Shown one piece after another: positions 12,897 to 39,352 of a stretch of DNA of 64,000 nt. Each line of letters begins with the position of its first letter. Position 1 is the stretch's first letter. The notes beneath the pieces were generated by a model. The model made no database searches. It was not told the origin of the DNA and saw only the letters and a list, made by a program, of their open reading frames with translations. The position numbers and the translations under genes are program-made. This DNA is from a virus. The stretch is from IMG/VR virus record IMGVR_UViG_3300036760_000150, positions 64,001 to 128,000 of that record. One strand, given 5' to 3'.

Positions 12897-12902
12897 ATGT
12901 AT

Positions 12903-13841
12903 ATGGCAGCCTTAAAGAAGAACTTGATAGTTGAGGGAGTACTCACAGCCCAAGTACCTGACACGGCTGGTGAAGTCCTTGACATATCTGGCGCCGACAT
13001 AAGCGACCTTAAGACTGGTCGTAGCCCCGTCAACACTGAACATATCAACCCGGACGACATCAAGAAAGACAGTGACGACAACGGGTTCCAGTCTATCGTG
13101 GGCCGCGTGATTGACGCAAAAAAGATCTTCAGCGAAGAAGACTGTGACAGCCCTGATGAACTTAGGGCTTACAAGAACCTCAAAGTGCCTTTAATCTGGG
13201 GTAAGATCGAGATATTCGACAACGACAAGTCGCACGACAACGCTCGTGCTGCAGCCTCGATCATCAGGAACTACGCCGATGCAGGTGTCAAGCAGTTGCT
13301 TGGGTACTCTGTCGAAGGCAACACATTGAGAAGAGACGGAAATTTACTTAAAGAAACGGTGATCAAGAGGATCGCCTTGACAGCCAAGCCTGCTAACAAG
13401 GCAGCTGTCGTTCAGGTTGTGAAGGACCAGCCGCAATCTACCTCTGCTTCTATTACAAAGTCAACGAGTAGCATTGGCGGCTATGAGCCCCTCTTTAAAT
13501 CTGAGAACTTCATGAGCCACATGCGCGTGGTCAAGGATGACTACGGTCTGTCAGGCGCCATCTTCAAGTTGAAGAAAGCTCTGACGGCAGGTGGTTCAAA
13601 CGTACCCCCAGGCAACCTCACGAACGGGTCGGCGTTGCAGCCAGAGTCCCAGCTAGGAAAGCTAAAGAAACTGATCGGACGACAGAAGATCAGTAGGGAC
13701 CTTCTAAGACGCCATCTACCTAAGATCTCTGAGGAAGACCTGGACAAGGTCGAAGCTGTCCTGAAGGCAGAGCGTGAGGCTGTAGACCTCAAATCTGCGC
13801 AGGATACCTACGACCAGATAACTAAAGGTTTTAAACAATAA
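12903..13841 (+). CDS. Prohead (maturation) serine protease
   Basis: DTAGEVL, NTEH (His) and GYSVEG (Ser) motifs of HK97/Herelleviridae-type proteases; between portal and scaffold; start probably ATG 12903 (track gives 12897). Confidence 0.85.
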   Translation: MAALKKNLIVEGVLTAQVPDTAGEVLDISGADISDLKTGRSPVNTEHINPDDIKKDSDDNGFQSIVGRVIDAKKIFSEEDCDSPDELRAYKNLKVPLIWGKIEIFDNDKSHDNARAAASIIRNYADAGVKQLLGYSVEGNTLRRDGNLLKETVIKRIALTAKPANKAAVVQVVKDQPQSTSASITKSTSSIGGYEPLFKSENFMSHMRVVKDDYGLSGAIFKLKKALTAGGSNVPPGNLTNGSALQPESQLGKLKKLIGRQKISRDLLRRHLPKISEEDLDKVEAVLKAEREAVDLKSAQDTYDQITKGFKQ

Positions 13842-13861
13842 ATGATAATGTTTCTGCCTAT

Positions 13862-13883
13862 TTAACAAGATAACTTAACATTA
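13862..13883 (+). promoter_or_regulatory. Late promoter variant for the capsid operon
   Basis: TTA-acaagataa-CTTAACATTA, same 9-nt spacing with two mismatches. Confidence 0.55.
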
Positions 13884-13958
13884 TGTCTTGTACACACGGC
13901 GGATGGCATGTTTCATCGTGCCCGTTCCCCCGCAAGACAAAACGATAAGGAGATGTAG

Positions 13959-14414
13959 ATGTCAGCACAAATCGCTAAATCCAGCACACTGATGCTTAAG
14001 TTGAAGGAAGAGCTTCGTCAGAAGCTGCCCTCATTCGTGCAAACAGACAACGTGGACAGCAACGGCTACCCCACCTTGCTCTTGAGCGCAGACTCCACAC
14101 CCGCTGCTGGTGAACAGAACATGTTCATCCGCATCACCACGATGTCTAGCCCCTTTGTCGACTCCATCGGACAGTCACAGTCGGTCTACGGCCCTCATGT
14201 GATCCAGTCTGTTGAAGAAGCCAGTACAATCTCTGGAGTCTCACTTTTGACTCTTGCCAACCGGTCGAAGATCGATTGGTGTATCACCCGCGCTGGATGC
14301 CAAGAAGAGAAGTACCTCAGAGCCAATGGGGCAGCCCCCGGCCTCTCTGATATCACTTCTGGTAACCTTGTGTCTAAAGTTGCGGACGCGTACTTCGCGC
14401 TCTCTCACCAGTAA
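13959..14414 (+). CDS. Putative virion or head protein
   Basis: Strong SD TAAGGAG; 151 aa; in the capsid operon; N-terminal IAK|SS. Confidence 0.6.
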   Translation: MSAQIAKSSTLMLKLKEELRQKLPSFVQTDNVDSNGYPTLLLSADSTPAAGEQNMFIRITTMSSPFVDSIGQSQSVYGPHVIQSVEEASTISGVSLLTLANRSKIDWCITRAGCQEEKYLRANGAAPGLSDITSGNLVSKVADAYFALSHQ

Positions 14415-14461
14415 GCAACTGGAGAAAAAAACGGTTACTTGTTGGAAAGAGAGGAGATGTT

Positions 14462-15415
14462 ATGGACCAAGACCTTAGTAAGTTAGTAGCAGAAGCGACA
14501 GAAGCACTCGACAGTCTTATCAAGTCTGAGAGAGAACGCTTCGACATCCTCCTGAAATCAGAAACGTCTGATAAGAAAGATGGCACCAAGCCGCTAGCTA
14601 AGAAAGAAGAGTCGTCCAAGGAGGAGTCTTCAAAATCCAAAGAAGAGTCATCCATGGCGAAGAAAGAGGAGTCTTCTAAGAAGGAAGAGTCTTCAAGATC
14701 CAAAGAAGAGTCTATGAAGAAAGATGACCCAGAAGGTTCGGGCTTTCAAAGCCCTGCCCCTGAGGCATCTTCAAAGCCTGAAGAGTCTAGCTCGCCTGAA
14801 GGGTCAAAGACCCCTGAGGCCTCTAGTTCTCCCGAAGCGTCTGGTGATGCTGGCGTCGATCATATCTCAGAGATGCTCTCTGGACTTGACGACGAGCAGT
14901 TGCAACACCTCTACATGTCGTTGAAGTCTGAGCTGATGTCTCGCATGAAGCCTGAAGATCAACCAGCTAAGCCCGACATGTCAAGTGCTCCGGCCCCTTC
15001 ACCTGCCGCACCATCGCCGTCGCCTGAACAACCAGGAATGGAGAAGATGTACATGGCAGAGAAGAAAGAAGTCGAGGAGAAGTTGTCGAAGTCTGAGGGT
15101 ACCCTTAAGAAAGCACAAGAAGAGAACGGTGCTCTTAAGAAGGCTCTTGAGAACGCGACTGACATGCTCGACAAGATCCTCAGCCGTCCCGTCAAGAAAG
15201 CCATCACCGACATCCGATTCGTGGAGAAGGGTGAGGAGCTTGCCAAGACAGACGACAAGATCAGCGACTCTGATCTGAAGAAGAAAGCCAACACCGTGTC
15301 TAAAGACATGGGTAAACTCAGCCAGTTATCTAAATCTGAACGTGAAACCCTTGTTGACTTCACCACCGGACGCTCAAAGGCTCGTGAAGAAGTTATCAAG
15401 ATCGTTAACAAGTAA
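14462..15415 (+). CDS. Scaffold protein
   Basis: Charged, low-complexity, coiled-coil; many LxKS/KA sites; immediately upstream of MCP. Confidence 0.78.
   Translation: MDQDLSKLVAEATEALDSLIKSERERFDILLKSETSDKKDGTKPLAKKEESSKEESSKSKEESSMAKKEESSKKEESSRSKEESMKKDDPEGSGFQSPAPEASSKPEESSSPEGSKTPEASSSPEASGDAGVDHISEMLSGLDDEQLQHLYMSLKSELMSRMKPEDQPAKPDMSSAPAPSPAAPSPSPEQPGMEKMYMAEKKEVEEKLSKSEGTLKKAQEENGALKKALENATDMLDKILSRPVKKAITDIRFVEKGEELAKTDDKISDSDLKKKANTVSKDMGKLSQLSKSERETLVDFTTGRSKAREEVIKIVNK
14600..14722 (+). repeat. Coding tandem repeats (K)KEESS in the scaffold
   Basis: KKEESSKEESSKSKEESSMAKKEESSKKEESSRSKEESMKK. Confidence 0.85.
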
Positions 15416-15426
15416 AGGAGTGCAAA

Positions 15427-16830
15427 GTGCAAGAAGTCATTCAGAAAATCGAAGAACTTAGGAAGGCGCTGGAAGCGGGTGGGATGAACGCCGCTCCCGG
15501 AACACTGACTCAAGGGTCTGCGCTCCAACACGAAGACCTCAGTGCAGTGATGAACGTCACCACATTTGAAGACAAACACATCAAGCTGCAGAAGAAGTTC
15601 AAAGTCGTCCCCGCCAAAGGGACGATGGTCCAGTACAATCGTCAGCTTGACCGTGGTATCTTCGGCGGATCTGCCGTCATCGAGGGTGCTGTCGGAGACG
15701 AGAGCACATCGACGTATGTGCGTGAGATCGTCAACATGTGCTACTACGCTGAAGTGCGTAGGACCACAGAGCAAGCCAACCTCATCGAGTCTTTCGACGG
15801 TGTCAAAGCCGATGACAGGGTCGAGCAGGATGCAGCTCTCAAGATCGCTGGCGACGTCGAGTTCGACCTCTTCCGAGGTAAGTCGATGTTCTCCAACGGT
15901 GGGGTGTTCGACGGCCAAGGTTCTGCTATCCCTCAGAACATGCCTAACATCCTCGGTCTCGACCCTCTCATCAGACGGTCAGACATCCTTCAAACTACAC
16001 AAGACCTCATGTTCAACGAGTATGGATCTGACGGATCTATCCAGTTCAACCAAGCTGGTGTCCTGTCTCAGTCCACTATCGAAGACATGTACGCTCGCTC
16101 CAGCATGAACCTCGGTATGGCTGACTGGCTCGGACTTGATCCTTTGACCCACAGCGGGTACAACAAGATCAGTCACGCCAAAGAGCGTATCGTCCTCGCT
16201 GGATCGCCTCAACAAGCTACTGGTGCAAGCCTGAAGGAGCAGTGGGTCGCTGGTGGTGCTATCACCGTCGAGTCCAGTCGCTTTCTCTCAGCCAAGACCA
16301 GCCCTGCTCGTCCTAAGATCGGATCTCCTGCAGCCCCAACACATGCTGCCGCTGACGGGTCTCCATCGGGCACATCGTTCATCGCTGCTCAAGTCTACTA
16401 CTACCGTGTTACCTCTGTCAACGAACGTGGTGAAAGCTCTGCTTCAGCCGCTGCCTCGTTCACGGTTGCGACCTCTGGTAACAGTACCGCGCTCACGATC
16501 ACCCCTGCTGGCGGTGTCCAAGCACTGTACTTCAACGTCTACCGCTCGAATGCTGGTGAACCTGCATCGAAGGTTCGCTTCATCGGTCGCGTCGCTAACA
16601 GCGGTGCTGCTACCACGATCTTTACCGACCTCAACAACAGACTTCCAAACGGCGTCACGGGCTTCCTGCTCGATATGCGCGGTATGGAGATGCCTGAGTT
16701 GGCCAGCTACCGATCGAAAGAGCTTGCTAGAACAGACTTAAGCAATCCCAAAGTATTTTATCGCTTCACAACCCTTGCGGTAAAATTACCAAGGTTCAAC
16801 TGCCTTGTTGATAACTTGCTCCCAAGCTAA
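15427..16830 (+). CDS. Major capsid protein (Herelleviridae-like, with FN3-like insertion)
   Basis: N-terminal LRK|ALEAGG...GSALQHEDL; YYYRVTSVNERGES insertion; strong SD; followed by a terminator. Confidence 0.9.
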   Translation: MQEVIQKIEELRKALEAGGMNAAPGTLTQGSALQHEDLSAVMNVTTFEDKHIKLQKKFKVVPAKGTMVQYNRQLDRGIFGGSAVIEGAVGDESTSTYVREIVNMCYYAEVRRTTEQANLIESFDGVKADDRVEQDAALKIAGDVEFDLFRGKSMFSNGGVFDGQGSAIPQNMPNILGLDPLIRRSDILQTTQDLMFNEYGSDGSIQFNQAGVLSQSTIEDMYARSSMNLGMADWLGLDPLTHSGYNKISHAKERIVLAGSPQQATGASLKEQWVAGGAITVESSRFLSAKTSPARPKIGSPAAPTHAAADGSPSGTSFIAAQVYYYRVTSVNERGESSASAAASFTVATSGNSTALTITPAGGVQALYFNVYRSNAGEPASKVRFIGRVANSGAATTIFTDLNNRLPNGVTGFLLDMRGMEMPELASYRSKELARTDLSNPKVFYRFTTLAVKLPRFNCLVDNLLPS

Positions 16831-23148: not shown

Positions 23149-23472
23149 ATGAACAACGTATTATCTATATCTCCAAGGAAGATCACGAAGAACGGGCAGA
23201 TCGTCCTGCCCAAGGCAGTGCGCGACACACTAGGCGTGAAGAACGGTGACTTCGTGTCGTTCAACATCATAGACGGCCTAGTCACCGTCACCCGAGAGCC
23301 CATCAACGAGGCTGTCCAGAGTGGTCGGTCTTTGTCTACCAAGGAGTTAGACGAGGCGTTTGACGAGGTCGAGGCGACCATCCAGAAGTCTGTGGCGATC
23401 AGCCCAGAGACCCTGACTGGTGGTCCTACAACCGCAACTGAGGTTGCGGACGACGGGTTGGCGCCGTTCTGA
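23149..23472 (+). CDS. AbrB/MazE/SpoVT-family DNA-binding protein
   Basis: RKITKNGQIVLPKAVRDTLGVKNGDFVSF; SD AAGGAG; possible TTGACA-N18-TAGTTT upstream. Confidence 0.85.
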   Translation: MNNVLSISPRKITKNGQIVLPKAVRDTLGVKNGDFVSFNIIDGLVTVTREPINEAVQSGRSLSTKELDEAFDEVEATIQKSVAISPETLTGGPTTATEVADDGLAPF

Positions 23473-25169: not shown

Positions 25170-28100
25170 ATGGAAGATAGTAATCGCAAAGACATCTTGA
25201 CATCAAAAGATATCAACGAATCGTTGACGTCAGATGATACCAACTTAGAGAAGTCGGTGAATACCAAGCTTGTTCATCTAGCTACTATAGCCTCACTTCT
25301 CGGTGTCCCGTACTCTTCAAACATGCAGCCACCTAAAGCTGTGGCGGCAGCTCCAGCAGTTGTCCCCAGCGCCACCCCTCATCCCGGTCTTGAGCCCATA
25401 GCGTACATGGAGTCCAGGAATGGTAGGAACCAGAGGCACAAGCTTGTGACATGGGGCCTCAACTCTGGAACCAAGGCTGTAGGCAAGTACGGCCTCATGC
25501 CACTGACTGTCCACGAGACTGCCAAGCATGACAGCACCATCGGCAGGATGTACCCTGAGTTTAAGACTCTAGACCCTATCAAGGATCACGACAAGTACGA
25601 GAAGATCTTGCTTGCCAACCCGCAGGTGCAGGACCACATCGCCAACTCACACTGGGGTAGGTTGACTCGCACCTTCGGTAAAGACAAGAACAGGGCAGTC
25701 TACGCCTGGAAGTACGGCATCACAGGTGCCAAGACTGCATCACATAGCGATGTTTCGTCTGCTCCTTACGTGAGGGAGTACAACAAGCATCACAACATGC
25801 TGAATGTTCAGACCAAGAAGAGTCTTCGCAAGTCAGAGTTTCAGCTGCCGCAGCACTTCAGTTTCATATCAGCTCAACGCGGTGGTGATCACAACCATGA
25901 CGTACATCAACGTCTGTACCAAGACCTGAGAGACTCAGGGTTCGACCCCGTTGAGGTGACGGGCCACTACGGCTACCAGGAGAGGTCTTTCCTAGTACCA
26001 CACACAGGCTCTGCTGTCGATCGCAACAAGGTCGAAGATCTAGGCAGGAAGTACAATCAGGAGAGTGTGTTACACTCGTCCGACTTGAACAACGAGCTGG
26101 TCAACCTAGAAGATCCAACGAAGAGTATGAGGGGTTCTGGCATCAGCAACGATTACAGTGATGCCATGTACACCGAGCTGCCTGGTGGTAGTAGATTTAA
26201 GTTGAACCTAAGGAAAACAGAGGTCCTTGAGAAGGCTGACGGACAACCTAACCCACAAGCTCGTCAGGTGGCAGAGGGTTACGCCAACTCAAAAGGTATC
26301 AAGCTGCGGCGTCTGACTCCGGTTAAGGTAAACCCACAGTTCGCGACGCATGTCGCTGGCGCCTACGAGAAGATGCCTCACTCTCCTAGCAGTCCAGACA
26401 CCAAACGTTCATACGACGCCTTGATCAGCGAGACGCTGGATCAGTTCCAACACATGAAGAACGCAGGCCTTAAGATATCAAAGATCAAGCCTGGCATGGA
26501 GAACCCCTACAAGTCTTCAAAAGACTTGTTCCATGACGTTCAGCACAACAACCACATGTGGTACTTTCCAACTGAGAGTGGGTTTGGATCATCTGAAACT
26601 CGTAGCGACCATCCTATGCTTGCTCCAACAGAAGAGATGCATGAGGGCAAGCCGATGCTTGCGAATGATGTGTTCAGGGTAGTTCATGATTACTTCGGAC
26701 ATGCAAAAGAAGGTCATGCCTTTGGCCCCAACGGGGAAGAGAACGCCTGGCAGACTCACGCTCAGATGTACTCGCCGGAGGCTAGACGGGCAATGACCGC
26801 CGAGACTCGTGGACAGAACAGTTGGGTTAACTTCGGGCCGCATGCTGCACACAACAGGTCAAACCCACACCAAACTGTATACGCTGATCAGAAGGCTGGG
26901 CTGTTGCCTGACTGGGCTCATGCAGTAGATCCTACACAGGCGTTTAGTAAATCAGAAGATGATGATAAAGTTCTCTACCACTACTCACAGCATCCTGAGC
27001 CGTTGAAGATCATAGACCCTGTCTTCCACGGTACTGGTTACCCTGGTGCTGAAGGCAAACGTGACGACAGAGTGGCTCGTGCGTACTACTACGACACACC
27101 GACGGGTCATGAACCTGATGTTATCTCTGGTGCTACGCATATGTACACTGTGAAGCATCCAGGCAACATACTTGACGTCGCCAGCGAAGAGGCCGAACCG
27201 TTCAAAGAGAAGGCTCGCAACCAATATGGTATCATAGACTACTCAGACCTTGAGCGTCACATGAAAGATGCTGGGTACAACGGTTACAAGAACACAGCGA
27301 GCGCCATCCCTAACGCAGTCGCTTTGTTTCATCCTCAGCAGGTTGATGAGTCGAGAGATCTACGTAAGTCGGAAGAGCTTGAGAAAGCATCTCATAACGT
27401 GCGAGAACAAAAGGCTAAGGTATTCGGCACAAAAGCTAATCCTCCTGCTGGATCGCAGATGCGTGAGAAACACATCGAACACATCAACAACTTCGCCAAG
27501 AAATTCCTTAACCTAGAGATCCGTCCTTCAGGCGGTAAGATCAACGAGGCAACAGGACAGAGACGATCTGAGAGTCCTAAGATAGGTACCGACAAACCGG
27601 ACTGGAGAAGTGGTCAACTTGAAGCTCAATGGAACCCGGAAGCTATCATGCATGAGCTTGCACACCTTATGTTGCTACCTTCAGGTGTTGGCTTAAAAGA
27701 AGGCCAAAGGCTGATGGACAAGCAGTACGGAGAGGTTCAAAGTAAATACGGATATATGCAGCAGAAAAGATCTCAGGGTGAGGTACAACCTATGGCTGCG
27801 GAGCAGATCATACGTAGACACCTAGGTCTTCCAGCCAGTCGAGTGAGCATTCCTGTTGAGTCGAAAGATGCCCCACCTAGAGTGTCAGTTGAAGCTCCAG
27901 ATGTGGTTATAGGTACACGAGTTCCACAACCCACTAAGAGTGGTGCAGTTAAATGGGTCGATCTGATCAGACAGTCCCGCCTTTTGAACACAGAGAATCG
28001 AAAGAGGTTGGAAGATATCTTTAGTGGTAACATCAAATTTCATCCAGAGTTGGGTTGGATACCGAAGAAGACATCTATATCCACACAGAAGCCCAAAGAT

Positions 28101-29771
28101 GAACTGCCTACTGGATTGGTCAACGATGATGTCGAACCTTCTAAACTTGCGTCTAGCGAGAAAGTATATACATCAGACGTCTTAGAAAAAGGCGTTAAAC
28201 AAAGGCTGTTCTACTTTAGTCCTGCAGAGGTGCCAGAAGAACATAAGCAGAAGGTGGCACAGTGGACAGATCCATTAGAGACAAATATATCTGGTGACAG
28301 AGAAGTGATACCTAGATTAGAAGGAAATGCTAGGATGAGGGCTCTGCATACTTTATCCAGCAAAACAAAGACTAGATGGAATCCTGATAAAAAAGAGAGA
28401 GAATTTTTATTACACCGAGGAGTGTCTGGAAGTGAACACAATCGTGTAATAAATAACGGACATGTAGAACATCCTGGTAAATCTTCGTGGTCTCCCAAAC
28501 ATACAACTGCCGTTAATTGGATGGATCAATATGGCGGTCTTGCTGATGAAGACCCCAGTGTACTATCTGCGTGGATACCAGAATCTAAGATACATCATGT
28601 TCCTATGCAGATTGGTGCCACAGAAAGAGTAGAGACCGTTAAGCCGGGTAATAAAAGATTTTCGCCAACAGGAAAGTTACAAGGTCCTATGGAGTGGCGC
28701 AACGAACACGAAGTGATCGTTGATCCTGGTAGTCATAAGGTGGCAACTGAAAAGGAAGTTAAGTCAACCGACAAGACCTCTGAGCCTACCGACATCAACG
28801 AGCGAATCAACCGTAAGATGACCAAGTCTGAGTATGATCCTGCCAAAGACGTCACAGCCTTCACATCTTTCTCTACAGAGCCTGGCGACATAGAGCTTGT
28901 GCGAGAGATCAACGAGATGATCGAGGCTGGTCACACCAGGCCGCTAGGTGAGAAAGGCTTGTTCACCGAGGATAGCTTCGTCGTCGGAGAGAAACCAGAT
29001 AACTCTTGGCTTATCAAGGTTGAGGTAGGAAACACGCCCGGCATTAAAGCTGTTCAGTACACCGGCCCTCAGTCTGTTAAAGAGGCCGCCTTCTACAAGG
29101 CCTCAGAACAAGTGTTCGGTCTGTCTCGCTTCGTGCCCAAGTCTGTGCTCGGTGAGGTGCAGACCAAGGACGTACCCAAACTGGCGGTGGCCATCAAGAT
29201 GCTGCCTCCTGAGTTCAAGAACGCCGCCGAGACAGAGGGTGACATCAAAGGTATGATGAAAGGTCTCCTTGAGAAGTACAAGGAGGCAGGTCTCTCTCAC
29301 ATGCTTGCGTTCATGCTCTACGTGTTGGGCGACCTCGATGCCCACGGCAACAACTTGATGACAGACGGGTACAACGTCGTGTTGATAGATCATGGCAGCT
29401 CGTTTGCCGACCTGTCTTCTGAGGACAAGTCTGACAAGAAGCAGTTCGTACCTTACATCTTGAGGCATGAGGGTTTCAAAGGTAAGTTGTCTGACAACGA
29501 CAAGCAGTCTCACATGCCGTTGATCGATAGCCCCGAGATAAGGGCTAACTTGAAAGAGTACATCATGTCTGTAGATCCTAAGAAGTTACATGACGTCGTA
29601 GTCAGCTACGGTCTAAATCCGGTACCATCAGTCACACGTCTTAAGGTCGCGCAGAAGATGCTTGAGCACTCAGACCACCCTGACGTATTAGTGAACTACG
29701 TTTGGATAAAAGGTGCACCTGCGGACCTAGTTGAAGAGCAAGAAGGAGTCGCACATGAAGTTGGAGCCTGA
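25170..29771 (+). CDS. Multi-enzyme polyvalent polyprotein, probably packaged in the head
   Basis: Transglycosylase (MES, GKYGLMP, AWKYG); DUF3293-like (FISAQ...GHYGYQERSFLV); HDYFGH domain; ART-like (LYHYS...YYY...GYNG); zincin HELAH; R-S-E ART (LHRG, SSWS, EHEVIV); kinase (IK, KEAAFY, DAHGNN, IDHG). Confidence 0.8.
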   Translation: MEDSNRKDILTSKDINESLTSDDTNLEKSVNTKLVHLATIASLLGVPYSSNMQPPKAVAAAPAVVPSATPHPGLEPIAYMESRNGRNQRHKLVTWGLNSGTKAVGKYGLMPLTVHETAKHDSTIGRMYPEFKTLDPIKDHDKYEKILLANPQVQDHIANSHWGRLTRTFGKDKNRAVYAWKYGITGAKTASHSDVSSAPYVREYNKHHNMLNVQTKKSLRKSEFQLPQHFSFISAQRGGDHNHDVHQRLYQDLRDSGFDPVEVTGHYGYQERSFLVPHTGSAVDRNKVEDLGRKYNQESVLHSSDLNNELVNLEDPTKSMRGSGISNDYSDAMYTELPGGSRFKLNLRKTEVLEKADGQPNPQARQVAEGYANSKGIKLRRLTPVKVNPQFATHVAGAYEKMPHSPSSPDTKRSYDALISETLDQFQHMKNAGLKISKIKPGMENPYKSSKDLFHDVQHNNHMWYFPTESGFGSSETRSDHPMLAPTEEMHEGKPMLANDVFRVVHDYFGHAKEGHAFGPNGEENAWQTHAQMYSPEARRAMTAETRGQNSWVNFGPHAAHNRSNPHQTVYADQKAGLLPDWAHAVDPTQAFSKSEDDDKVLYHYSQHPEPLKIIDPVFHGTGYPGAEGKRDDRVARAYYYDTPTGHEPDVISGATHMYTVKHPGNILDVASEEAEPFKEKARNQYGIIDYSDLERHMKDAGYNGYKNTASAIPNAVALFHPQQVDESRDLRKSEELEKASHNVREQKAKVFGTKANPPAGSQMREKHIEHINNFAKKFLNLEIRPSGGKINEATGQRRSESPKIGTDKPDWRSGQLEAQWNPEAIMHELAHLMLLPSGVGLKEGQRLMDKQYGEVQSKYGYMQQKRSQGEVQPMAAEQIIRRHLGLPASRVSIPVESKDAPPRVSVEAPDVVIGTRVPQPTKSGAVKWVDLIRQSRLLNTENRKRLEDIFSGNIKFHPELGWIPKKTSISTQKPKDELPTGLVNDDVEPSKLASSEKVYTSDVLEKGVKQRLFYFSPAEVPEEHKQKVAQWTDPLETNISGDREVIPRLEGNARMRALHTLSSKTKTRWNPDKKEREFLLHRGVSGSEHNRVINNGHVEHPGKSSWSPKHTTAVNWMDQYGGLADEDPSVLSAWIPESKIHHVPMQIGATERVETVKPGNKRFSPTGKLQGPMEWRNEHEVIVDPGSHKVATEKEVKSTDKTSEPTDINERINRKMTKSEYDPAKDVTAFTSFSTEPGDIELVREINEMIEAGHTRPLGEKGLFTEDSFVVGEKPDNSWLIKVEVGNTPGIKAVQYTGPQSVKEAAFYKASEQVFGLSRFVPKSVLGEVQTKDVPKLAVAIKMLPPEFKNAAETEGDIKGMMKGLLEKYKEAGLSHMLAFMLYVLGDLDAHGNNLMTDGYNVVLIDHGSSFADLSSEDKSDKKQFVPYILRHEGFKGKLSDNDKQSHMPLIDSPEIRANLKEYIMSVDPKKLHDVVVSYGLNPVPSVTRLKVAQKMLEHSDHPDVLVNYVWIKGAPADLVEEQEGVAHEVGA

Positions 29772-31754: not shown

Positions 31755-32702
31755 ATGCGATACGACAAGCTACTTAAGTCTGTGATGGGTGAGGACCTCT
31801 ACGAGAGTCTTCACAAAGCCCTGCAGAAGCTGACGACAAGCTCTGTCGTCGACATAGGCGAGTTGTACCACAGCCTCAAGGTTGCCCCCAAGGCGGTGGT
31901 AGCCTTCCTGGTTCGCGAGCTTAAAGACATGAAGGACGCCAAGGAAGTCAAGCTACCTTGGGCTGAGAACGCATCGATGCTGGTCAACAAACTAGACAGT
32001 GATGTGTACCAAGGTCACATCGTCGAAGATGGTCACATCAAACATGAGTTTCGACTGTCATCTCTACCTGCCCTGGCGGCTCACCTAACCTCTCATTTTG
32101 AACTATACGACGAGGACCAGGAAGAGGAGGCTAAACCTGATCAGTTAGATGACGGTAAAGTCAAAGCTCTTGAGTCTAAACTCAACCAGCTGCAGATACA
32201 GGCCCTTGAGGCTAAGATAAACAGCCTGATGGCACTTGTCTCTGCTAAGGTGACACAGCCAGTGGTGAAGGTAGACGACCTCAGCAAAGCTGGTCTCATG
32301 CCTAAGATGCCCTCACCTCCCAAGCCTGGGATCAAGGTAGGCGGCAACCAGGGCATAATGACGGGTGGTGTGAAGGGCGACAAGACCGCAGCCACCGACA
32401 GGATGAGTAAACCCGTCAAGTCTCTCATCGGTAAACCGATGCTGAACACACCTCCTGTTAAGTCTAAATTGTTGACGTTCAACAAGTCCGACATGATGAA
32501 GAACTGCATGGAGTGCAGAAAAAATGAGTTTGATAAATCTGGCAACTACACTGGATGTGATTGTTGGAAAGGGATGAGTAAGCCTAAGGTAAAGAAGAGT
32601 GATTCTGACACTGTAACTATTGAGCTACCTCAAGATTGGGACTCCGACGCCGTCGTCGCATTGATAAGGTCTGTGAAGAAGTATGGAAGAGAGTCAAACT
32701 GA
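31755..32702 (+). CDS. Putative internal head protein with C-terminal Zn finger
   Basis: LLK|S, LHK|A, LSK|A, FNK|S and VKK|S sites; CMEC...CDC. Confidence 0.55.
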   Translation: MRYDKLLKSVMGEDLYESLHKALQKLTTSSVVDIGELYHSLKVAPKAVVAFLVRELKDMKDAKEVKLPWAENASMLVNKLDSDVYQGHIVEDGHIKHEFRLSSLPALAAHLTSHFELYDEDQEEEAKPDQLDDGKVKALESKLNQLQIQALEAKINSLMALVSAKVTQPVVKVDDLSKAGLMPKMPSPPKPGIKVGGNQGIMTGGVKGDKTAATDRMSKPVKSLIGKPMLNTPPVKSKLLTFNKSDMMKNCMECRKNEFDKSGNYTGCDCWKGMSKPKVKKSDSDTVTIELPQDWDSDAVVALIRSVKKYGRESN

Positions 32703-33555
32703 CAAGGTAGTTGCCATAGTCAGCGTCTACCTGTCAAATCAGATAAAAGACGACGACGATCTACGTGACCAGAACATGTATGTCAGTCGTCTTGAGAAGT
32801 TATGTCATGCCGTCGTGGTAAGCAAAGGTGGACAGGTCACACCTGTGCCTGCTGCCATGGGTATGGGCGACGCGTTCAAACTAGACATCCCCGTCGATGA
32901 GATCACATGCGTGAAACAGCTTGTCTGTCAGGCCAAGGAAGACGAGAGTCTACGTCTGTGTGTTGGTCTAGGACATGACATAGTAGAGGCTAAGTACGCA
33001 CTAGAGCATGCTATGCTTGAAGGACCATGCTCCATAGTCGTCTACCACCCTGACATGGAACCTAAAGAAGAGGTCAAGAAGTCAGAGCCTGAGCGTGAGA
33101 AGGCTCTACAGATACTGCAGACCATCAAGCAGAACATGCAGGTGTTTGAGAAGATGAAGCAAGAGAACCCTCAGATGTACTCGCATGTGTTAGAGACGCT
33201 TAAAGGTCTTGTGCAGGCTGTTGGCTCCAAGAAAGGTCACGCCGACAAGATCAACAACACTGGTGATAACATACAAGATCTGATAGACAACGTTCAGTCA
33301 GGCTACGAAGACGACGATCAAGATGCAGCCCAAGAAGCTGTGGATGCCCTACCTAAGCCTGACGCTGTTCCTCAACAACCGCAACCTGCAGAAGAGCAGC
33401 AACCTCAAGTTGGCCTCAACAAACAGCTGCTTGCTGCTGCCCTTAGACAGGGTGGCAAGACAGATGATTCTCGTCCAGACTTCAGCGATAGTGAAGATCC
33501 TGAGTTCATGGAGGCGCTGTACGACGTCATAATGAGTGGAGACACAAGTGCCTAA
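32683..33555 (+). CDS. Degenerate mCpol/GGDEF-like domain protein with acidic tail
   Basis: GG....GMGDAF (GGDE position) and LCVGLGHDIVEAKYALEHAMLEGPCSIVVY (S.G.G....A..AL..AK..G pattern). Confidence 0.5.
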   Translation: MEESQTDKVVAIVSVYLSNQIKDDDDLRDQNMYVSRLEKLCHAVVVSKGGQVTPVPAAMGMGDAFKLDIPVDEITCVKQLVCQAKEDESLRLCVGLGHDIVEAKYALEHAMLEGPCSIVVYHPDMEPKEEVKKSEPEREKALQILQTIKQNMQVFEKMKQENPQMYSHVLETLKGLVQAVGSKKGHADKINNTGDNIQDLIDNVQSGYEDDDQDAAQEAVDALPKPDAVPQQPQPAEEQQPQVGLNKQLLAAALRQGGKTDDSRPDFSDSEDPEFMEALYDVIMSGDTSA

Positions 33556-36500
33556 GATCCAGAAGATGCCAGCTGCAGAGGCTGAGCAACATGTAAACAA
33601 CCTGAGCTTGCCCGCCAGCAAGTTGGCCGAGATAGCTGGTCAGCACACAGACAACCCTGAGATCATGCAGGCTATCGCTAAGCATCCTAATGCCGGACCT
33701 CAGGCCCTAGACATAGCCTACAGGTCAGATATGGCTGACAGTGCCCTTGAGCACCCTAACGTGTCGCAGAAGACTGTCGAGCATGCGTTCAACAGGTTCG
33801 TTGAACCAAACGAGCCTAAAGATCTTGAGTACGAACATAAAGACATAGCACTTCATCCCAAGTTGCCTCAAGAAAAGAAAGACACTTTGGTCATGAAGAT
33901 CATGAACTCTAAAGACAAAGGTACTTGGAGTGACATGATAGCTAACAATTACTTTGACAAAGGTCATGCTTCAGAGGCTATGGTACAGCATGCACTTCAA
34001 CACCCGGATGTTGACTACACAGCTCATGCCTTACAGTCTCCCACGGTGTCAGATGAGCATGTTAAGACTGCAGCGGCCAGGAAAGACTTTGACTACGAGC
34101 AAGCCAAAAAGGCGATTGAGAACAAAGCCCTGTCACCTGAGTCTATAGCTTTCTTGTACAACAAGTTCAGGGGCAAAGAGGGTGAGAACACCTACTGGCG
34201 AGATAAGATCGAAGGTAACCTGACAGAGAACCCCAACACCCCACCTGAGATAATCAGCAAGCTTGCGAGTAAGCGTAGTCCTCACCGTCGCGATGCCATG
34301 CAACACCCAGCTTTTCCCGAGAAAGAGTTGCACAACATGGTCAAAGAAGGTGACGAGGATGCCATAGATGCAGCGTTGCCTCGCAGCGACACACCTGAGG
34401 AAGTACTTCGTCACATACACGCACACCTGCCAGATGACGCAAACTACAAGTGGGGTAAAGGAAGATCTTTGGTCAGGCATCCTAACTACCCAGAGGATCT
34501 TCAACTTAAGAGTGCTAAAGGTAGCACAGATGAGGCCAGAGCCTTACTTAAGAGGGAGCAGCTGTCTAAGCCCGTCTTAGATCAACTTGTGAGCCACAAG
34601 AACACCAACCTGGCTGTCGATGCTTTGAAGCATAAGGCAATCACTCCAGAGACAGTGTTGCTGGCGTACAACAGGAAAGCTAAAGATGTCGCTGGTGCTG
34701 CTGGCCTACATCGTCTGTTGCCCAAAGAGTTGAAGATCAACCGAGCTGTCGAGAACGAAGACACAGCTGTAAAATTAGCCGACATATCAAACGACAAAGA
34801 TGTCCTTAGGTCTATCGCTGAGAGGTGGGGTAACAAAGATTCAGTTCGTGGAAGACTGTTACGTAACCATAACTTAGACGGTGACACCCTGCACAATCTG
34901 GTGAGTCACCAGATCCAGGCCACAGGTAGTCGAGCGACTTATTTTCCCAACAACTTAGATGAACATCCCAACATGAAGCCTGAGACTCGCATGATGATGA
35001 TCAAACATCCAAGTGCTTCATACAAGGCTTTCTCTCACATCAACTTGACCCCAGATGAGGCTAGAGAAGGCCTTCGTCACTGGGCAACTGAGGATCGCGA
35101 CCTAGCTGGCGACTATGCTACTGGACTTCTCACTCATCCTAACACAGATCCTGAACTTGCCAAAGAGATCGTCTCTGGTACATACGGGAAGCTTAACAAC
35201 CGACAGCTGCGTTCAGATGAGCTTGAGGAGTTCGTCAAGTCGCATCCTTTGGTGTACACCAAAGGTGTTGTCAAGGCTGCCCTTGAGACTCCTCACGAGT
35301 TGACTGACAAGAACGCCGTTGGACAGATCGCCAAGGGTGCTGATAGCTTGTCTGCCAAAGACATAGCTGAGTATGTAGATGGCGTCAAGAAGATGAAGTT
35401 CGGCGGTGATCGTGACAAAGAAGATTTCTACCATTCAGTAGCTGTGGACATGGTTAGAAATCCTAATGCAGATCCTCATTTTTTAGTTGGACTTGTAGAT
35501 AGGTCACTCAATAACAGTCAACAGACACAGCATGATATCAAACTTGCCAATGCTGCCATACACAACCCAAGCTACCCTAAAAAACATCTAGAAGAGATCA
35601 TAAGACACCCCAAGTTCCCTGAAGACAACGGTAACTTACGTGGTGACCTAACAGGTTTCATAAAAGATAAGATCTACGAACCTGAGATGAAAGAACTCAG
35701 AGACAAAGCGTTGGTCGAGTCTAATCATCCTCAGTTCGTTACAGATCTACTAACTACTAGGTTTAAAGACCAAGAGGACCCCAAGCTAGTCGAGAAGGCT
35801 CTCTCTAACCCACACCCTGAAGTTGTAAAAGACGTATTGGGCTACCTGTCTAACAAGTCAACGCAGATGTCAGGCGCTAATGACTCACGCAGCAGGCAGA
35901 TAAGAGACTACGTAGATCAACTTGCAGACCACGCAGATCCGTCAGTGCGAGCTGCTGCGTTTGAGATGATGTCTCCAGAGGCACAAGCTAAGATGACCCA
36001 AGGTCAAGACTTGATGTCAAACCCAGAACTCATACAAGGCTTATCAAGAGAGAACGCCGAGAAGTTGAAGATAGAGTCACATCATAGTTTGGACGCTATC
36101 CAGCAGCTCCTAAAACATAAGTACGCTCATTGGCAGCATTTTGAGCAGGCAGTTAACCACTCCCAAGAAGGAGCTGAGCTAGCACATAAGATATTATCTG
36201 CTAAGATCGAAGGTGAGGATCGTCCATCAAAGAAAGACGTAGAAGGTCTAGGTTACATACAAGAGAAACTACTTGATAAGTACTCAGACTCCTCTGCCTC
36301 AAGGTTCATAGCTAGAACCACACCCAACACACTTGTGCTGGACAAGATAGTCAACGACCCTCGTCTGTTCAACAAGTTTGGTGGTAACATAACAGAAAAC
36401 GACCATGCCTTGTCTCGTCACCTTGACAGCTTCACTAAGTTGAAAGGTGAGAGTCACGCCAGCCTGATGAGCGACCTGGCCGCTCATCCTAAGGCTAGCA

Positions 36501-39352
36501 CGAAGCTGCTGGAGCACATCGCTGCAAACTACCCAGAGGAGATGGTCAAGGTTGCAGGACATCCAAAGGCTTACTCAAGCAAGGTGCTTCGTACCATACT
36601 TACATCAGGCAACAAAGAGGCTATAAAACAGGTAGCCAACAACGACAAGGTACCTGACGAGGTCAGAGAGCAGCTAAAACGTGACCCTGAGATCATGTTG
36701 AATTTAGATGGTAAGTATGTAACTCCCGACGATCTTACCAGAGCTGTCCCTGAGGCTGACGCGCATAGGCTAGAACAGATCGTAGACCATCGATCAGCAA
36801 ACGATGAAGTGTATAATAAAGTCCTTGATGCGGTTGATAGTGGTAGGTTCTCAGACGAAGAGAAACAGATCACACTGAACAATGTGGCGGATAAGCGAAA
36901 CTTGAGTAAGACAACCATAGATAGGATCATAAGTCATACTAACGCCACTTCACGCAGCATATCTCATGTGTTGTCTAAAAACAATGTGGATAACGAGCAG
37001 TTCAACAAGATCGTGGATAGGTTCGACTCTGATCAACCAGTTATGGCTTACCTTGCCGATAACTTGTCATCATGGCGCGACGGAGATGTTGGCCAAGCAG
37101 CAGATAGACTTATTGACCACATCGATGTTGGAGCAGAACCAAATCTGGTCTCTCAACTTATAAGTAACCAGCATGGTAAACTGCACCCTCAGTTCTTCGA
37201 TAAAACTCTTAGCAAACTTGAGGCCGCACGAGGACCTCAGTACCAGTACACAGACAAGCCTAAGAGTATGTTAGAGTCTGACGGTGAGCTACTGAGTCAT
37301 ATCGCAGAGTTCGCACCTACGTCGTTGCATGGTAAGTTGGTGCAGTACCCAGAGTTACAGCCGATGTTGTTGAGGTCTGGCAATATTAACAAGACCTCGT
37401 ATGACAAGATGGTAGAAGATCTTCCAAGATTGCATGAGATAGCTGCTAAGTCTGACAGCGATTACTTGAAGAAACGTTTTGTCGAAGAACATATTAAACG
37501 TCTGGTAGATAGCCCACACTCTGATGAGTCTGCCATCAACTTGATCTACAAGACTATGGTTGACAAACAGACGCCTGAGGAAAACGGTGTGATGGTATCA
37601 GCCATACTATCATCTCCTAAAGCACCATCTAAGCTGATAGATGACATGTTTAAGGCTGGCAACATCAGGGCTCTGCGTAGTCCTAAGTTATCTAGGCATA
37701 TAGTTGATGAACAACTCTCTAACCTGACAATGACCAACTCTGAAGATCTGGCTCAGAACCCCAACGTGTCTATGGGTGATCTTAACAAAGCCGTAAAAGA
37801 TAAACGAAATTCTCCAGTTGCTTACAGAGATGCATACGGCACGATGTTGTCTCGACCCTCCTTGAGGTCAGAAGACCTTGAGCAATTATATGATATGTTC
37901 TCAAAGAACAAAGGTGCACTTCCCACCGAAGATCAAAATTACCTCACCAAGAGGATCATCCAACGTCCTGAGGTGACTGAGTCTATATTCAACGATGCCT
38001 ATGGTAAAGGCCTCATAACTAATGATCAAGCGTACTCCAACCCTAAATGGGGTGGTCGTCTGTTCAGGGCTATGGATCACAGAGTTCCAAGTGGTGTTCC
38101 CAACTTGACGACTAAAACTCCTGTGACTAACCAGCAGGTGTTGAAGCCAAGAATGGAGAAGCTGCAGTCAGTCGCCTCCATGGTACCACCTGAAGGGTAC
38201 ATAGACTGGGCCACCTTCAAGAAAGATAACCCCTCTATGGCTGGTGACCCTCTTGTGCAACGCATGTTCACGTCTGCCCCTAAGCAGCGACTTACGCAGG
38301 AGCATGCGCAGAAGTACCTGTCTGAGGTTCCTGGCAAAGAGTTTCACATGTCTTACACAAAATGGACAGGCATGCAGCGTCATAGGTCTGTGCCACAGTT
38401 GGTTGTCCAGGTGAACAACGGCTCTTTCATGGACGACGTGCTTGCCAAAGACCCTGAAGCTTACAGGCTGTACTCCTTCATGCAGCAGGCGTCTAAGAAC
38501 TCCGGTCATCCTACCACTCCTCAGTCTATAGGTTGGTCTCGCGTCGACACTGGTGATAAGGATCACTGGTTCATCGATGAGGTACAATCAGATTTTGGTG
38601 CTGGCGTTGCTAGGGAGCTGAGCAAGATACAGGAGAACCCAGAGCACGCAACTGCGTTTGCTAGCAAAGTTGGTATACCTGTCGAGAAGGCTCAGAAGGT
38701 TTTGCATAGGTTGGTCGACGTCATGCAAGGGTGGGATCGTGCGTTGGTGGAGCACGTGATCGATCTCGCTAAGCGTAACGGTGTCAAGCAGGTTTCTATG
38801 CACTCTGGTAAGTCTAAGACTGTCACCAACAAAGGTGGAGAGTCCGAGATCACGAACAAGTACGACAAGCTGTACAACAAGATGCCTCAGGAGATGGGAT
38901 TCCACGGTGACTTCTACAAGAACTTACCTGTGGCTACCGATAAATCATTGATGGAACAACCTGTATGGACGTTGAACATCCCTCAGGAGATTAAGAAATC
39001 TGAGTACGACGAGAGGTCTGTGTTGGTCAAAGCTGGCCAAGTCATATCGAAGCTCAAGAATGAGGAAGTTCAGAACTACTCACCGGAGGCGTTCCAAGCT
39101 GCTCTTGAGGCTGTCCAGGCTCTGGTGCAGGTCTTGAAAGAAAGTGGCTACACATCTCCAGGGCATGCCGACGTAAACAACCATCCGTCGGTTCCAGGAG
39201 AGACTTCGCCTAGACCTAAGGAAGATAAGCCGCTGACACATCAGCATAAGATGTACTCACCAGGTGCCGTTCGCATGTACGACAGCCACGAAGAGCGTCA
39301 GAAAACTCCAGAAGGCAAGTGGGTCAACGTCAGCAGGCAGGGTGATACATGA
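33548..39352 (+). CDS. Very large HEAT/LRV-repeat protein with C-terminal polyvalent-type domain
   Basis: Dozens of degenerate A..HPN.P helical repeats; C-terminal GWSR...WFIDEVQSDF domain; IKK|SE site; start probably GTG 33548 (SD GGAG). Confidence 0.72.
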   Translation: MPKIQKMPAAEAEQHVNNLSLPASKLAEIAGQHTDNPEIMQAIAKHPNAGPQALDIAYRSDMADSALEHPNVSQKTVEHAFNRFVEPNEPKDLEYEHKDIALHPKLPQEKKDTLVMKIMNSKDKGTWSDMIANNYFDKGHASEAMVQHALQHPDVDYTAHALQSPTVSDEHVKTAAARKDFDYEQAKKAIENKALSPESIAFLYNKFRGKEGENTYWRDKIEGNLTENPNTPPEIISKLASKRSPHRRDAMQHPAFPEKELHNMVKEGDEDAIDAALPRSDTPEEVLRHIHAHLPDDANYKWGKGRSLVRHPNYPEDLQLKSAKGSTDEARALLKREQLSKPVLDQLVSHKNTNLAVDALKHKAITPETVLLAYNRKAKDVAGAAGLHRLLPKELKINRAVENEDTAVKLADISNDKDVLRSIAERWGNKDSVRGRLLRNHNLDGDTLHNLVSHQIQATGSRATYFPNNLDEHPNMKPETRMMMIKHPSASYKAFSHINLTPDEAREGLRHWATEDRDLAGDYATGLLTHPNTDPELAKEIVSGTYGKLNNRQLRSDELEEFVKSHPLVYTKGVVKAALETPHELTDKNAVGQIAKGADSLSAKDIAEYVDGVKKMKFGGDRDKEDFYHSVAVDMVRNPNADPHFLVGLVDRSLNNSQQTQHDIKLANAAIHNPSYPKKHLEEIIRHPKFPEDNGNLRGDLTGFIKDKIYEPEMKELRDKALVESNHPQFVTDLLTTRFKDQEDPKLVEKALSNPHPEVVKDVLGYLSNKSTQMSGANDSRSRQIRDYVDQLADHADPSVRAAAFEMMSPEAQAKMTQGQDLMSNPELIQGLSRENAEKLKIESHHSLDAIQQLLKHKYAHWQHFEQAVNHSQEGAELAHKILSAKIEGEDRPSKKDVEGLGYIQEKLLDKYSDSSASRFIARTTPNTLVLDKIVNDPRLFNKFGGNITENDHALSRHLDSFTKLKGESHASLMSDLAAHPKASTKLLEHIAANYPEEMVKVAGHPKAYSSKVLRTILTSGNKEAIKQVANNDKVPDEVREQLKRDPEIMLNLDGKYVTPDDLTRAVPEADAHRLEQIVDHRSANDEVYNKVLDAVDSGRFSDEEKQITLNNVADKRNLSKTTIDRIISHTNATSRSISHVLSKNNVDNEQFNKIVDRFDSDQPVMAYLADNLSSWRDGDVGQAADRLIDHIDVGAEPNLVSQLISNQHGKLHPQFFDKTLSKLEAARGPQYQYTDKPKSMLESDGELLSHIAEFAPTSLHGKLVQYPELQPMLLRSGNINKTSYDKMVEDLPRLHEIAAKSDSDYLKKRFVEEHIKRLVDSPHSDESAINLIYKTMVDKQTPEENGVMVSAILSSPKAPSKLIDDMFKAGNIRALRSPKLSRHIVDEQLSNLTMTNSEDLAQNPNVSMGDLNKAVKDKRNSPVAYRDAYGTMLSRPSLRSEDLEQLYDMFSKNKGALPTEDQNYLTKRIIQRPEVTESIFNDAYGKGLITNDQAYSNPKWGGRLFRAMDHRVPSGVPNLTTKTPVTNQQVLKPRMEKLQSVASMVPPEGYIDWATFKKDNPSMAGDPLVQRMFTSAPKQRLTQEHAQKYLSEVPGKEFHMSYTKWTGMQRHRSVPQLVVQVNNGSFMDDVLAKDPEAYRLYSFMQQASKNSGHPTTPQSIGWSRVDTGDKDHWFIDEVQSDFGAGVARELSKIQENPEHATAFASKVGIPVEKAQKVLHRLVDVMQGWDRALVEHVIDLAKRNGVKQVSMHSGKSKTVTNKGGESEITNKYDKLYNKMPQEMGFHGDFYKNLPVATDKSLMEQPVWTLNIPQEIKKSEYDERSVLVKAGQVISKLKNEEVQNYSPEAFQAALEAVQALVQVLKESGYTSPGHADVNNHPSVPGETSPRPKEDKPLTHQHKMYSPGAVRMYDSHEERQKTPEGKWVNVSRQGDT

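Follow-up and report, generated by a model that had tools for sequence, protein, structure and literature searches.

In bacteriophage T4, the internal proteins and Alt, an ADP-ribosyltransferase (ART), are cut by gp21 at a capsid-targeting leader, and head proteases of the T4/phiKZ type (gp21, gp175) cut after glutamate. Cutting after Glu also applies to the gp245 motif of phage SPN3US, and several motif copies reside within one head-protease substrate of that phage (PMC10052503). Polyvalent proteins of phages and conjugative elements, products of late virion genes which combine many unrelated conflict-type domains in one polypeptide, are predicted to enter the host together with the DNA; by explicit analogy to viral polyproteins, their domains were proposed to be released by peptidases (Iyer et al. 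2017, J Bacteriol, PMC5512222). The subject of this analysis is such a protein, P0001, encoded by an open reading frame (ORF) of 1533 amino acids (25170–29771, plus strand, as are all features of P0001 and of the head genes given below) in a window of 64,000 nucleotides corresponding to bases 64001–128000 of the 146.7-kb virus record IMGVR_UViG_3300036760_000150. It is made up of seven modules, and every module boundary carries a short lysine motif, h-x-K|(S/A/G) (h, hydrophobic; the bar marks the proposed cut), which matches the putative head-maturation sites of the same phage.

With its seven modules, P0001 resembles the polyvalent proteins, which have two to fifteen unrelated effector domains and are typically encoded among late or virion genes of a phage or conjugative element (PMC5512222); there is also a resemblance in the kinds of domain, lysozyme-like and anti-restriction and, as putative domains of P0001, ART, metallopeptidase and kinase. 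It differs from what was proposed there, that is, release by embedded metallopeptidase or assemblin-like domains and no junction motif, in that the junction code of the P0001 family matches predicted head-maturation sites and persists in the absence of a metallopeptidase. As in T4, phiKZ and SPN3US, there is a short motif common to capsid and scaffold proteins and to a putatively packaged protein, here with a putative N-terminal leader; as in prohead-protease substrates, the motif recurs at putative sites in the major capsid protein (MCP) and scaffold of its own phage. Unlike in those systems, the proposed P1 residue is Lys, and cuts would part seven retained modules, whereas in SPN3US they yield only N-terminal propeptides which are discarded.

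By its gene sequences, the source phage, with a genome of 147 kb, is an Mx1-like myovirus, and its head genes bear a distant resemblance to those of Herelleviridae. The window encodes terminase, portal, head maturation protease, a scaffold-like protein and MCP; further on, there are genes for neck and tail, one ORF among them having the size of a sheath gene. The P0001 gene lies within this late virion operon, downstream of portal, protease, scaffold and MCP, and between phrog_772 (a homologue of gp36 of Bacillus phage CP-51) and phrog_1004 (a homologue of CP-51 gp37). In CP-51, a member of the Herelleviridae, gp32–gp34 show a comparable arrangement, with 13 h-x-K|[SG] sites in the scaffold, ALNK|ALSAG in the MCP and a copy of an MCP segment in the protease, but no gene for a polyvalent protein lies between gp36 and gp37 there. 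The closest cultured relative, Myxococcus phage Mx1 (OR576727.2), has syntenic polyvalent genes for a 1479-aa “NUDIX hydrolase” and a 619-aa “kinase” (proteins WNM70333.1 and WNM70334.1; scaffold WNM70326.1, MCP WNM70327.1), with ELRK|AMEAG in the MCP, LAK|SE sites in the scaffold and LKK|SE plus LEK|SE in the polyvalent protein; it differs from the present phage in its set of modules, in the kinase having a gene of its own and in a prohead protease ORF of 1240 aa.

The polyvalent class, its predicted co-injection, the polyprotein analogy, motif-cutting prohead proteases acting on ejection proteins, and the presence of large polyvalent proteins in virions are already known. What is new, and was not found described, is a junction motif at every module boundary which matches the phage's own head-maturation sites, includes double sites with spacers, and is kept through module shuffling.

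A Lysine Motif at the Module Boundaries of P0001

A preliminary description of this DNA had placed eight lysine motifs in P0001, all of which are present: LEK|S (aa 26, 25245), LRK|SE (aa 219, 25824), LEK|AD (aa 353, 26226), FSK|SE (aa 592, 26943), the double junction LRK|SEELEK|AS (aa 731/737, 27360–27389, with sites at 27360 and 27378), LEK|G (aa 1005, 28182) and MTK|SE (aa 1217, 28818). Cutting at both sites of the double junction would release a six-residue spacer, SEELEK. How far the motif is enriched depends on how tightly it is defined. The loose pattern h-x-K-[SAG] occurs 11 times versus 6.1 expected, a weak, about 1.8-fold excess reached by 222 of 5,000 shuffles, while the tight forms L-[ER]-K-[SAG] (6 versus 0.23 expected) and h-x-K-S-E (4 versus 0.16) are far above chance, no shuffle out of 5,000 reaching either count. 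As the tight forms had been picked after inspection, they were retested on independent data, that is, on homologues, on the scaffolds of relatives and on the whole genome. The latter (194 ORFs, 46,167 aa) contains h-x-K-S-E 13 times, and protease, scaffold and P0001, together only 4.7% of the residues, account for nine of these sites, so that the tight form stands out against non-virion ORFs as well. Three further loose matches lie in the kinase part of P0001 (aa 1308, 1322 and 1362), inside predicted helices or strands, and the one at 1308 is not conserved; the loose pattern is therefore insufficient by itself and context matters. Synonymous codons vary between motif sites and no common nucleotide stretch is found, which indicates that selection acts on the peptide.

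The motifs sit at module boundaries by two independent definitions, homology breakpoints and linkers in AlphaFold2 (AF2) models. When 119 homologues were aligned to P0001 by BLAST, 67% of the 466 endpoints of high-scoring segment pairs (HSPs) fell within 15 aa of a motif, a zone which makes up 14.5% of the sequence; these breakpoints delimit seven modules and thereby confirm the seven-module reading of the preliminary description. The AF2 models cover residues 1–741 (mean predicted local distance difference test score, pLDDT, 77.8) and 734–1533 (mean pLDDT 57.3). Every cited motif is held by one of the low-pLDDT segments 1–29, 215–223, 347–356, 593–597, 735–741, 968–1022 and 1199–1221, with pLDDT below 50 at residues 1–29 and 735–741, in agreement with the earlier expectation that the motifs would be found in linkers and not in folds.

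A Junction Code Kept through Module Shuffling

The strongest result of the analysis, which reaches past the original observation, is a code that appears, from sequence comparison, to mark junctions throughout the family. A homologue search with P0001 returned 541 homologues with strongly shuffled effector-domain architectures; a peptide-pattern search of IMG/VR gave no close relatives of P0001, and related phages were reached via MCP similarity instead. Among 119 homologues, 149 occurrences of h-x-K-S-E contrast with 14 expected. A double form, h-x-K|S-E-(x)-L-x-K|(G/A/S), of which LRK|SEELEK|AS of P0001 is one instance, is found 54 times versus 5.1 expected, with spacers of five to seven residues. 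For 142 such sites examined in all-against-all HSPs, 83% of the nearby HSPs end not more than 15 aa away, as compared to 24% at random sites.

It had been anticipated that homologues would swap, lose or split modules at the motifs, and this is what is seen. In P0004, which is 42–47% identical, the six motifs of the N-terminal half are all in register and a GNAT domain occupies the slot of the S-adenosylmethionine (SAM) lyase, between conserved motifs. P0002 lacks module 3 (M3), and M2 is joined to M4 by a single site, LYK|SEDD; P0003 lacks the zincin, and M4 is joined to M6 by LQK|TEELAK|G; P0005 has four modules in a changed order. In relatives identified via the MCP (including G001 and G004), the transglycosylase is fused straight to the kinase via LNK|SE, LKK|SE or LKK|NE. 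Modules which are encoded separately keep leaders ending in the motif (ILEK|GF in the related genome L016, PLEK|AG in L009), such as the stand-alone SLT gene of L016, which opens with a 17-aa leader ending ILEK|GF. Conversely, the leader position of P0001 corresponds to an internal junction in P0002 (FHK|SEVLEK|GF) and P0003 (FGK|SEDLEK|GF).

Outside the group with the Lys motif, the situation is different. There, the domains at the M3–M4 joint are fused directly, and a 4012-aa M3-bearing protein of a T7-like cyanopodovirus has no h-x-K-S-E at all and eight loose matches versus 9.1 expected; the genome of this podovirus has no annotated head protease. Direct fusion and lack of enrichment argue that the motif is lineage-specific and not just the ordinary appearance of a linker. 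When another junction motif was sought de novo in homologues lacking the Lys motif, the search was swamped by conserved motifs of module 3.

The Same Motif in Head Proteins

The preliminary description had also pointed to the motif at the N-terminus of the MCP and throughout the scaffold, and in both it is present. The MCP (15427–16830; phrog_752, E 7e-44) is 53% identical to that of Mx1 and 25–27% identical to MCPs of Herelleviridae such as CP-51; its putative maturation site, ELRK|ALEAGG, is located at aa 11–14 (15457–15468), and the MCPs compared, those of seven relatives and of Mx1, without exception have L-x-K|A-[LM]-E-A-G approximately 11–14 residues from the N-terminus. Cleavage of capsid protein between Lys and Ser reportedly takes place in Listeria phage A511, as the preliminary description stated. 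The scaffold-like protein (14462–15415) has four L-x-K|SE sites (aa 19, 30, 208 and 289), versus 0.44 expected from its own composition (P about 0.001). Scaffolds of six relatives are likewise enriched, and under composition control the excess in scaffolds is 8–10-fold; the scaffolds of relatives have 3–5 h-x-K-[SA]-[ED] sites each, and their proteases carry sites too.

The proposed processing enzyme is the head maturation protease encoded at 12897–13841 (phrog_1028, E 4e-8). It is 28% identical over 125 aa to gp32, the head maturation protease of CP-51, with GYSVEG aligned to GFSVEG; no Pfam match was obtained for it even at E ≤ 10. The protease carries LFK|SE (aa 199) and, at aa 222–250, a copy of the MCP N-terminus (KLKK|ALTAGG...). 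In full, protease aa 222–250 (13560–13649) read KLKK|ALTAGGSNVPPGNLTNGSALQPE and MCP aa 8–37 (15448–15537) ELRK|ALEAGGMNAAPGTLTQGSALQHE, the two being 63% identical. The copy is kept in relatives (approximately 70% identity) and in gp32 of CP-51 (VEK|ALSAGYETNPEDMEGG). Its role may lie in directing the protease to the inside of the capsid or in marking a site of self-cleavage.

In one relative, L015, the protease ORF (L015:2669–7588) has a length of 1639 aa, and its C-terminal end is a GGDEF diguanylate cyclase domain (aa 1442–1554, E 5e-14) preceded by LLK|AD; this looks like cargo joined to a protein of which entry into proheads is known. The protease ORF of Mx1 (L003, record 13002–16721; 1240 aa) is apparently extended likewise, and a “nucleotide cyclase” is encoded separately in Mx1, two genes further downstream.

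The Modules of P0001

A fold or family could be assigned to the SLT and SAM lyase modules and, tentatively, to the ART and kinase modules. The labels given to the seven modules are not equally firm: two are well supported, two have weak though concordant support, two are based on motifs, and one module is of unassigned function. The domain names of the preliminary description fared differently, those of the transglycosylase and the DUF3293/SAM lyase proving strong, those of the R-S-E ART and the kinase weak but consistent, while the H-Y-type ART-like module and the zincin are named by motif and weak matches only. P0001 itself does not match any ART-PolyVal, MPTase-PolyVal or LPD model of Pfam, although its homologues carry PF18760, PF18834, PF18838, PF18857 and PF18798, and its structure matches in BFVD are to phage proteins with LPD- or ART-PolyVal names (E 1e-15 to 1e-25). 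Profiles of both halves of P0001 gave no match to PDB sequences at E ≤ 1. Foldseek with the 741-residue model versus PDB gave nothing below E 0.001 except SAM lyase rows, a list swamped by the multi-domain model, by which M3–M5 were barely probed.

The protein opens with a putative propeptide of 28 aa ending in LEK|S (25170–25253), possibly a cleaved, capsid-targeting leader. The first module, M1 (25254–25832), has a family-1 lytic transglycosylase (SLT) fold (aa 66–217) which follows a hydrophobic helix (aa 33–45); the fold is goose-type lysozyme-like, with E-S in YMESRNG (aa 80–85) providing the putative catalytic Glu. Structures matched in VIA-align are MltC (4c5f; Z 12.5, root-mean-square deviation, rmsd, 2.4 over 124 aa), Slt70 (Z 10.6) and phiKZ gp144 (Z 9.7); there is no Pfam SLT match for this module. 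The helix, KLVHLATIASLLG (25266–25304), is located directly after the first motif, is kept in relatives (KLASLATAAAIVG, KMAGLAAAASILG) and, in the stand-alone gene of L016, is reminiscent of a signal or anchor sequence (MSSMLGAAAALSTPANA). Its role may be to hold the wall-degrading module at the membrane once this has been ejected.

By curated Pfam threshold and by the fold of its model, M2 (25833–26234; aa 223–352) is strongly indicated to be a SAM lyase of the T3 SAMase/Svi3-3 family, or DUF3293 family. Scanned alone, it scores 30.9 bits with PF23780 (cut-off 28) and 28.1 bits with PF11697 (cut-off 25); the fold matches T3 SAM lyase (7ock_L, Z 10.9, rmsd 3.4 over 126 aa) and, in Foldseek, 8bb1_E (probability 1.0, target-normalized template modelling (TM) score, TMt, 0.62). 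M3 (26235–26951; aa 356–594, with HDYFGH at aa 506–511) is a widespread phage domain, phrog_3170 (E 3.9e-18), and the commonest module of the family, being present in 112 of the 119 homologues. Its Atlas matches are exclusively unnamed viral clusters (TM 0.77–0.78 by target), and an Atlas feature search with it gave no usable match. A match in BFVD connects M3 proteins with a “phage head morphogenesis domain” protein.

M4 (26952–27368; aa 599–740, with LYHYS at aa 602–606) is a small alpha/beta module and ART-like at best, its single weak match being the NAD-using toxin MbcT (6fkg_B, Z 5.8, rmsd 5.2); it is also found apart, within a 483-aa gene of L009. M5 (27387–28190; aa 740–1007, with a long linker at aa 968–1007) is a zincin-like module by motif, HELAH (aa 828–832), and HExxHxMLxPxGxGL is conserved in the alignment (A2). 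For M5 there is no Pfam or PDB-sequence match and no convincing fold match; its neighbours in language-model comparison, LPD23 and SprT-like proteins, have scores below 0.9 and are leads only.

M6 (28191–28826) is consistent with an ART fold at aa 1054–1199 (residues 321–466 of the model, which were taken for fold comparison); more than 25 ART chains match at Z 4–6.7, on a low-confidence model, including KptA (9ld3, Z 6.7), TreTu, PARP16, pertussis toxin S1 and DarT1. The expected residues, R in LLHRG (aa 1080–1084; R1083), S-x-S as SSWSP (aa 1105–1109) and E-x-E as NEHEV (aa 1178–1182; E1179-H-E1181), are conserved in the consensus of A2. M7 (28827–29768; aa 1231–1529) is consistent with a PI3/4-kinase or HipA-like kinase fold, matching PI4KII-alpha (4pla, Z 6.2) and PI3KC2a, CtkA and HipA (Z 4.5–5), with the loops DAHGNN (aa 1390–1395; DxHxxN) and IDHGS (aa 1406–1410). 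With Pfam PI3_PI4_kinase (PF00454) it scores 16 bits, which is under the cut-off of 27.1, while precomputed PF00454 matches exist for the homologues P0013, P0025 and P0061.

Proposed Processing of P0001 and Alternative Explanations

Taken together, the lysine motif of P0001 is likely to be the processing site of some protease, and it is moderately probable that P0001 is packaged as an effector polyprotein and processed within the head by the prohead protease. In such a scenario, P0001 would be made late alongside the structural proteins and taken into the prohead, perhaps by means of its 28-residue leader. There, the head maturation protease (12897–13841) would recognize h-x-K|(S/A/G; also T or N in relatives) and cleave P0001 behind the Lys; at the same motif, the protease would also trim the MCP N-terminus, fragment the scaffold and cut itself. 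The products would be a lytic transglycosylase, a SAM lyase, the M3 domain, an ART-like module, a zincin-like module, an R-S-E ART and a PI3K/HipA-like kinase, plus short spacers; on leaving the head together with the DNA, they would target the host wall, restriction/SAM-dependent defence and host proteins, ahead of the expression of any phage gene. In favour of the polyprotein are, besides the findings on the motif given above, the occurrence of the motif in known classes of head-protease substrate (MCP, scaffold and protease), the position of the gene in the late virion operon and the detection of polyvalent proteins in other virions. Such detection, by mass spectrometry, was of a large polyvalent protein in phi24B (bioRxiv 10.64898/2026.04.10.717836) and in Lalka27a, the MCP of which is a distant homologue of the MCP of this phage. 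All sequence-level predictions of the effector polyprotein proposed in the preliminary description held; packaging, cutting by the prohead protease and injection are the steps which we infer, injection being suggested by the functions of the products. The comparison with eukaryotic viral polyproteins made there is one that has been drawn for polyvalent proteins before, but with embedded peptidases and not a head protease as the cutting enzyme (PMC5512222).

Several points weigh against this scenario. Cleavage in this phage and its relatives is putative, also at the MCP and scaffold sites, where it is proposed from conservation and an unconfirmed precedent in Herelleviridae, and Lys as P1 is a proposed position. 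In the best-studied case, SPN3US, head-protease cuts remove N-terminal propeptides only (PMC10052503), so that cutting between retained functional domains would be without direct precedent. The two closest relatives have L-x-K|Y at the M6–M7 junction, and some junctions have N or T at P1', that is, the rule was widened after the fact; further, L-x-K-G is the conserved start of the ART module (G-x-x-Q-R-x-x-P-F-N-P) and could belong to that domain. Finally, the dips in pLDDT at the junctions are partly built in, because many alignment rows are fragments which end there, and the model of the C-terminal half is poor.

Some of these points would equally suit a conserved, uncleaved linker or docking element which binds the capsid interior, the scaffold or the protease and so recruits the intact 170-kDa protein. 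This is the serious rival, albeit an unlikely one: with cleavage itself inferred only, with L-x-K-G lying within the conserved N-terminal stretch of the ART module and the M6–M7 joint non-canonical in the closest relatives, it could also draw on the virion RNA polymerase of N4 and the polyvalent protein gp47 of phi24B, which are reported to be packaged unprocessed or were seen as large proteins (PMC5512222; bioRxiv 10.64898/2026.04.10.717836). Docking, however, would not lead one to expect the 4–13 copies which the scaffolds of this head type hold along their length, a pattern expected of degradation; there is no obvious docking logic in double sites with spacers of five to seven residues, the MCP site is found 13 residues into the chain, in the region of maturation cuts, and the motif is absent from the homologue in the phage without an annotated protease.

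Were the motif a processing site, the cutting enzyme might be a different one. The embedded HExxH zincin (M5) could cut the polyprotein, in the head or after injection; the HExxH module is conserved, and the metallopeptidase domains of polyvalent proteins were proposed to act in this way by Iyer et al. 2017 (PMC5512222). Yet 51 of the 61 motif-bearing homologues have no recognizable homologue of this zincin, and 23 of those 51 have no HExxH whatsoever, for which reason self-processing by the zincin was downgraded and is considered improbable. P0003, moreover, retains junction motifs without the zincin, the occurrence of the motif in scaffold, MCP and head protease alike speaks for the latter as the enzyme, and the identity of M5 as a zincin is at the level of motif only. 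Even less is to be expected of a host protease cutting the junctions in the cytoplasm or after injection, or of a recombination linker at the DNA level without a role in the protein, though modules are exchanged precisely at the motifs: a host protease would not explain the co-occurrence with scaffold and MCP sites across apparently different hosts (Myxococcus for Mx1; a Flavobacterium-labelled contig for P0014), and a recombination signal in the DNA was rejected as unlikely in view of the synonymous codon differences and the lack of a common nucleotide stretch. A chance effect of linkers rich in Lys, Ser and Glu, to which the low excess of the loose pattern and the post hoc definition of the motif might be ascribed, can hardly be credited; it was rejected in view of independent enrichment in the 119 homologues, in the scaffolds of six relatives under composition control and in the whole genome, and of the behaviour of boundaries versus random sites. 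The head protease acting in trans is the enzyme implicated by a junction motif which matches head-maturation sites.

Genes in the Vicinity of P0001

The ORF following P0001 (29731–30402) is listed with a TTG start, so that it shares 41 nt with the 3′ end of the P0001 gene; starting at the ATG at 29755, which is in frame, would give MKLEPEMILHK|SIVG, a short leader with the motif at its end. Homologues of this ORF (208–215 aa) are located after the polyvalent gene in L004, L019 and L020. Further downstream, the 1938-aa ORF 33536–39352, which has a faint LRV_2 match, contains a single IKK|SE (aa 1819), and the adjoining ORF 32683–33555 contains VKK|SE (aa 131); these are the only further proteins of the virion region with the strict motif. 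Relatives keep the size and position of the former (1961, 1943 and 1939 aa).

Upstream of P0001, the small ORF 23149–23472 has an AbrB/MazE-like N-terminus (ITKNGQIVLPKAVRDTLG). Its counterparts in L019 and L020 have precomputed PF04014 (MazE_antitoxin) matches, according to which it would be a DNA-binding protein of antitoxin type, located immediately before the virion block. The ORF which follows the portal gene, 11799–12611 (270 aa), has the Cys/His motifs CKDCKRLWH ... HPACRH; it is 612 aa in L009 and L014, which suggests that extra modules have been gained there, too.

Implications for Polyvalent Proteins

Few counter-defence genes of phages are as large or as widespread as those of polyvalent proteins, and the published proposal for their deployment is self-processing by embedded peptidases. 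If P0001 is indeed processed as proposed, a concrete mechanism would be at hand, processing in trans by the head protease within the prohead, which would also explain the cassette-like shuffling of modules. Module boundaries and the termini of mature effectors would become predictable from sequence in hundreds of uncultured phages, and the biology of prohead proteases would be widened from the trimming of propeptides to the release of several enzymes from one precursor. For the clade of Mx1-like myoviruses (about 120–170 kb), there is in our estimate an even chance that the head protease generally releases plug-and-play cargo, where motif-flanked modules can be inserted, deleted, reordered, split or fused to the protease and still be delivered as free enzymes. 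The junction motif would then be a portable “cut here” code, by which the evolution of polyvalent proteins through cassette shuffling would be explained.

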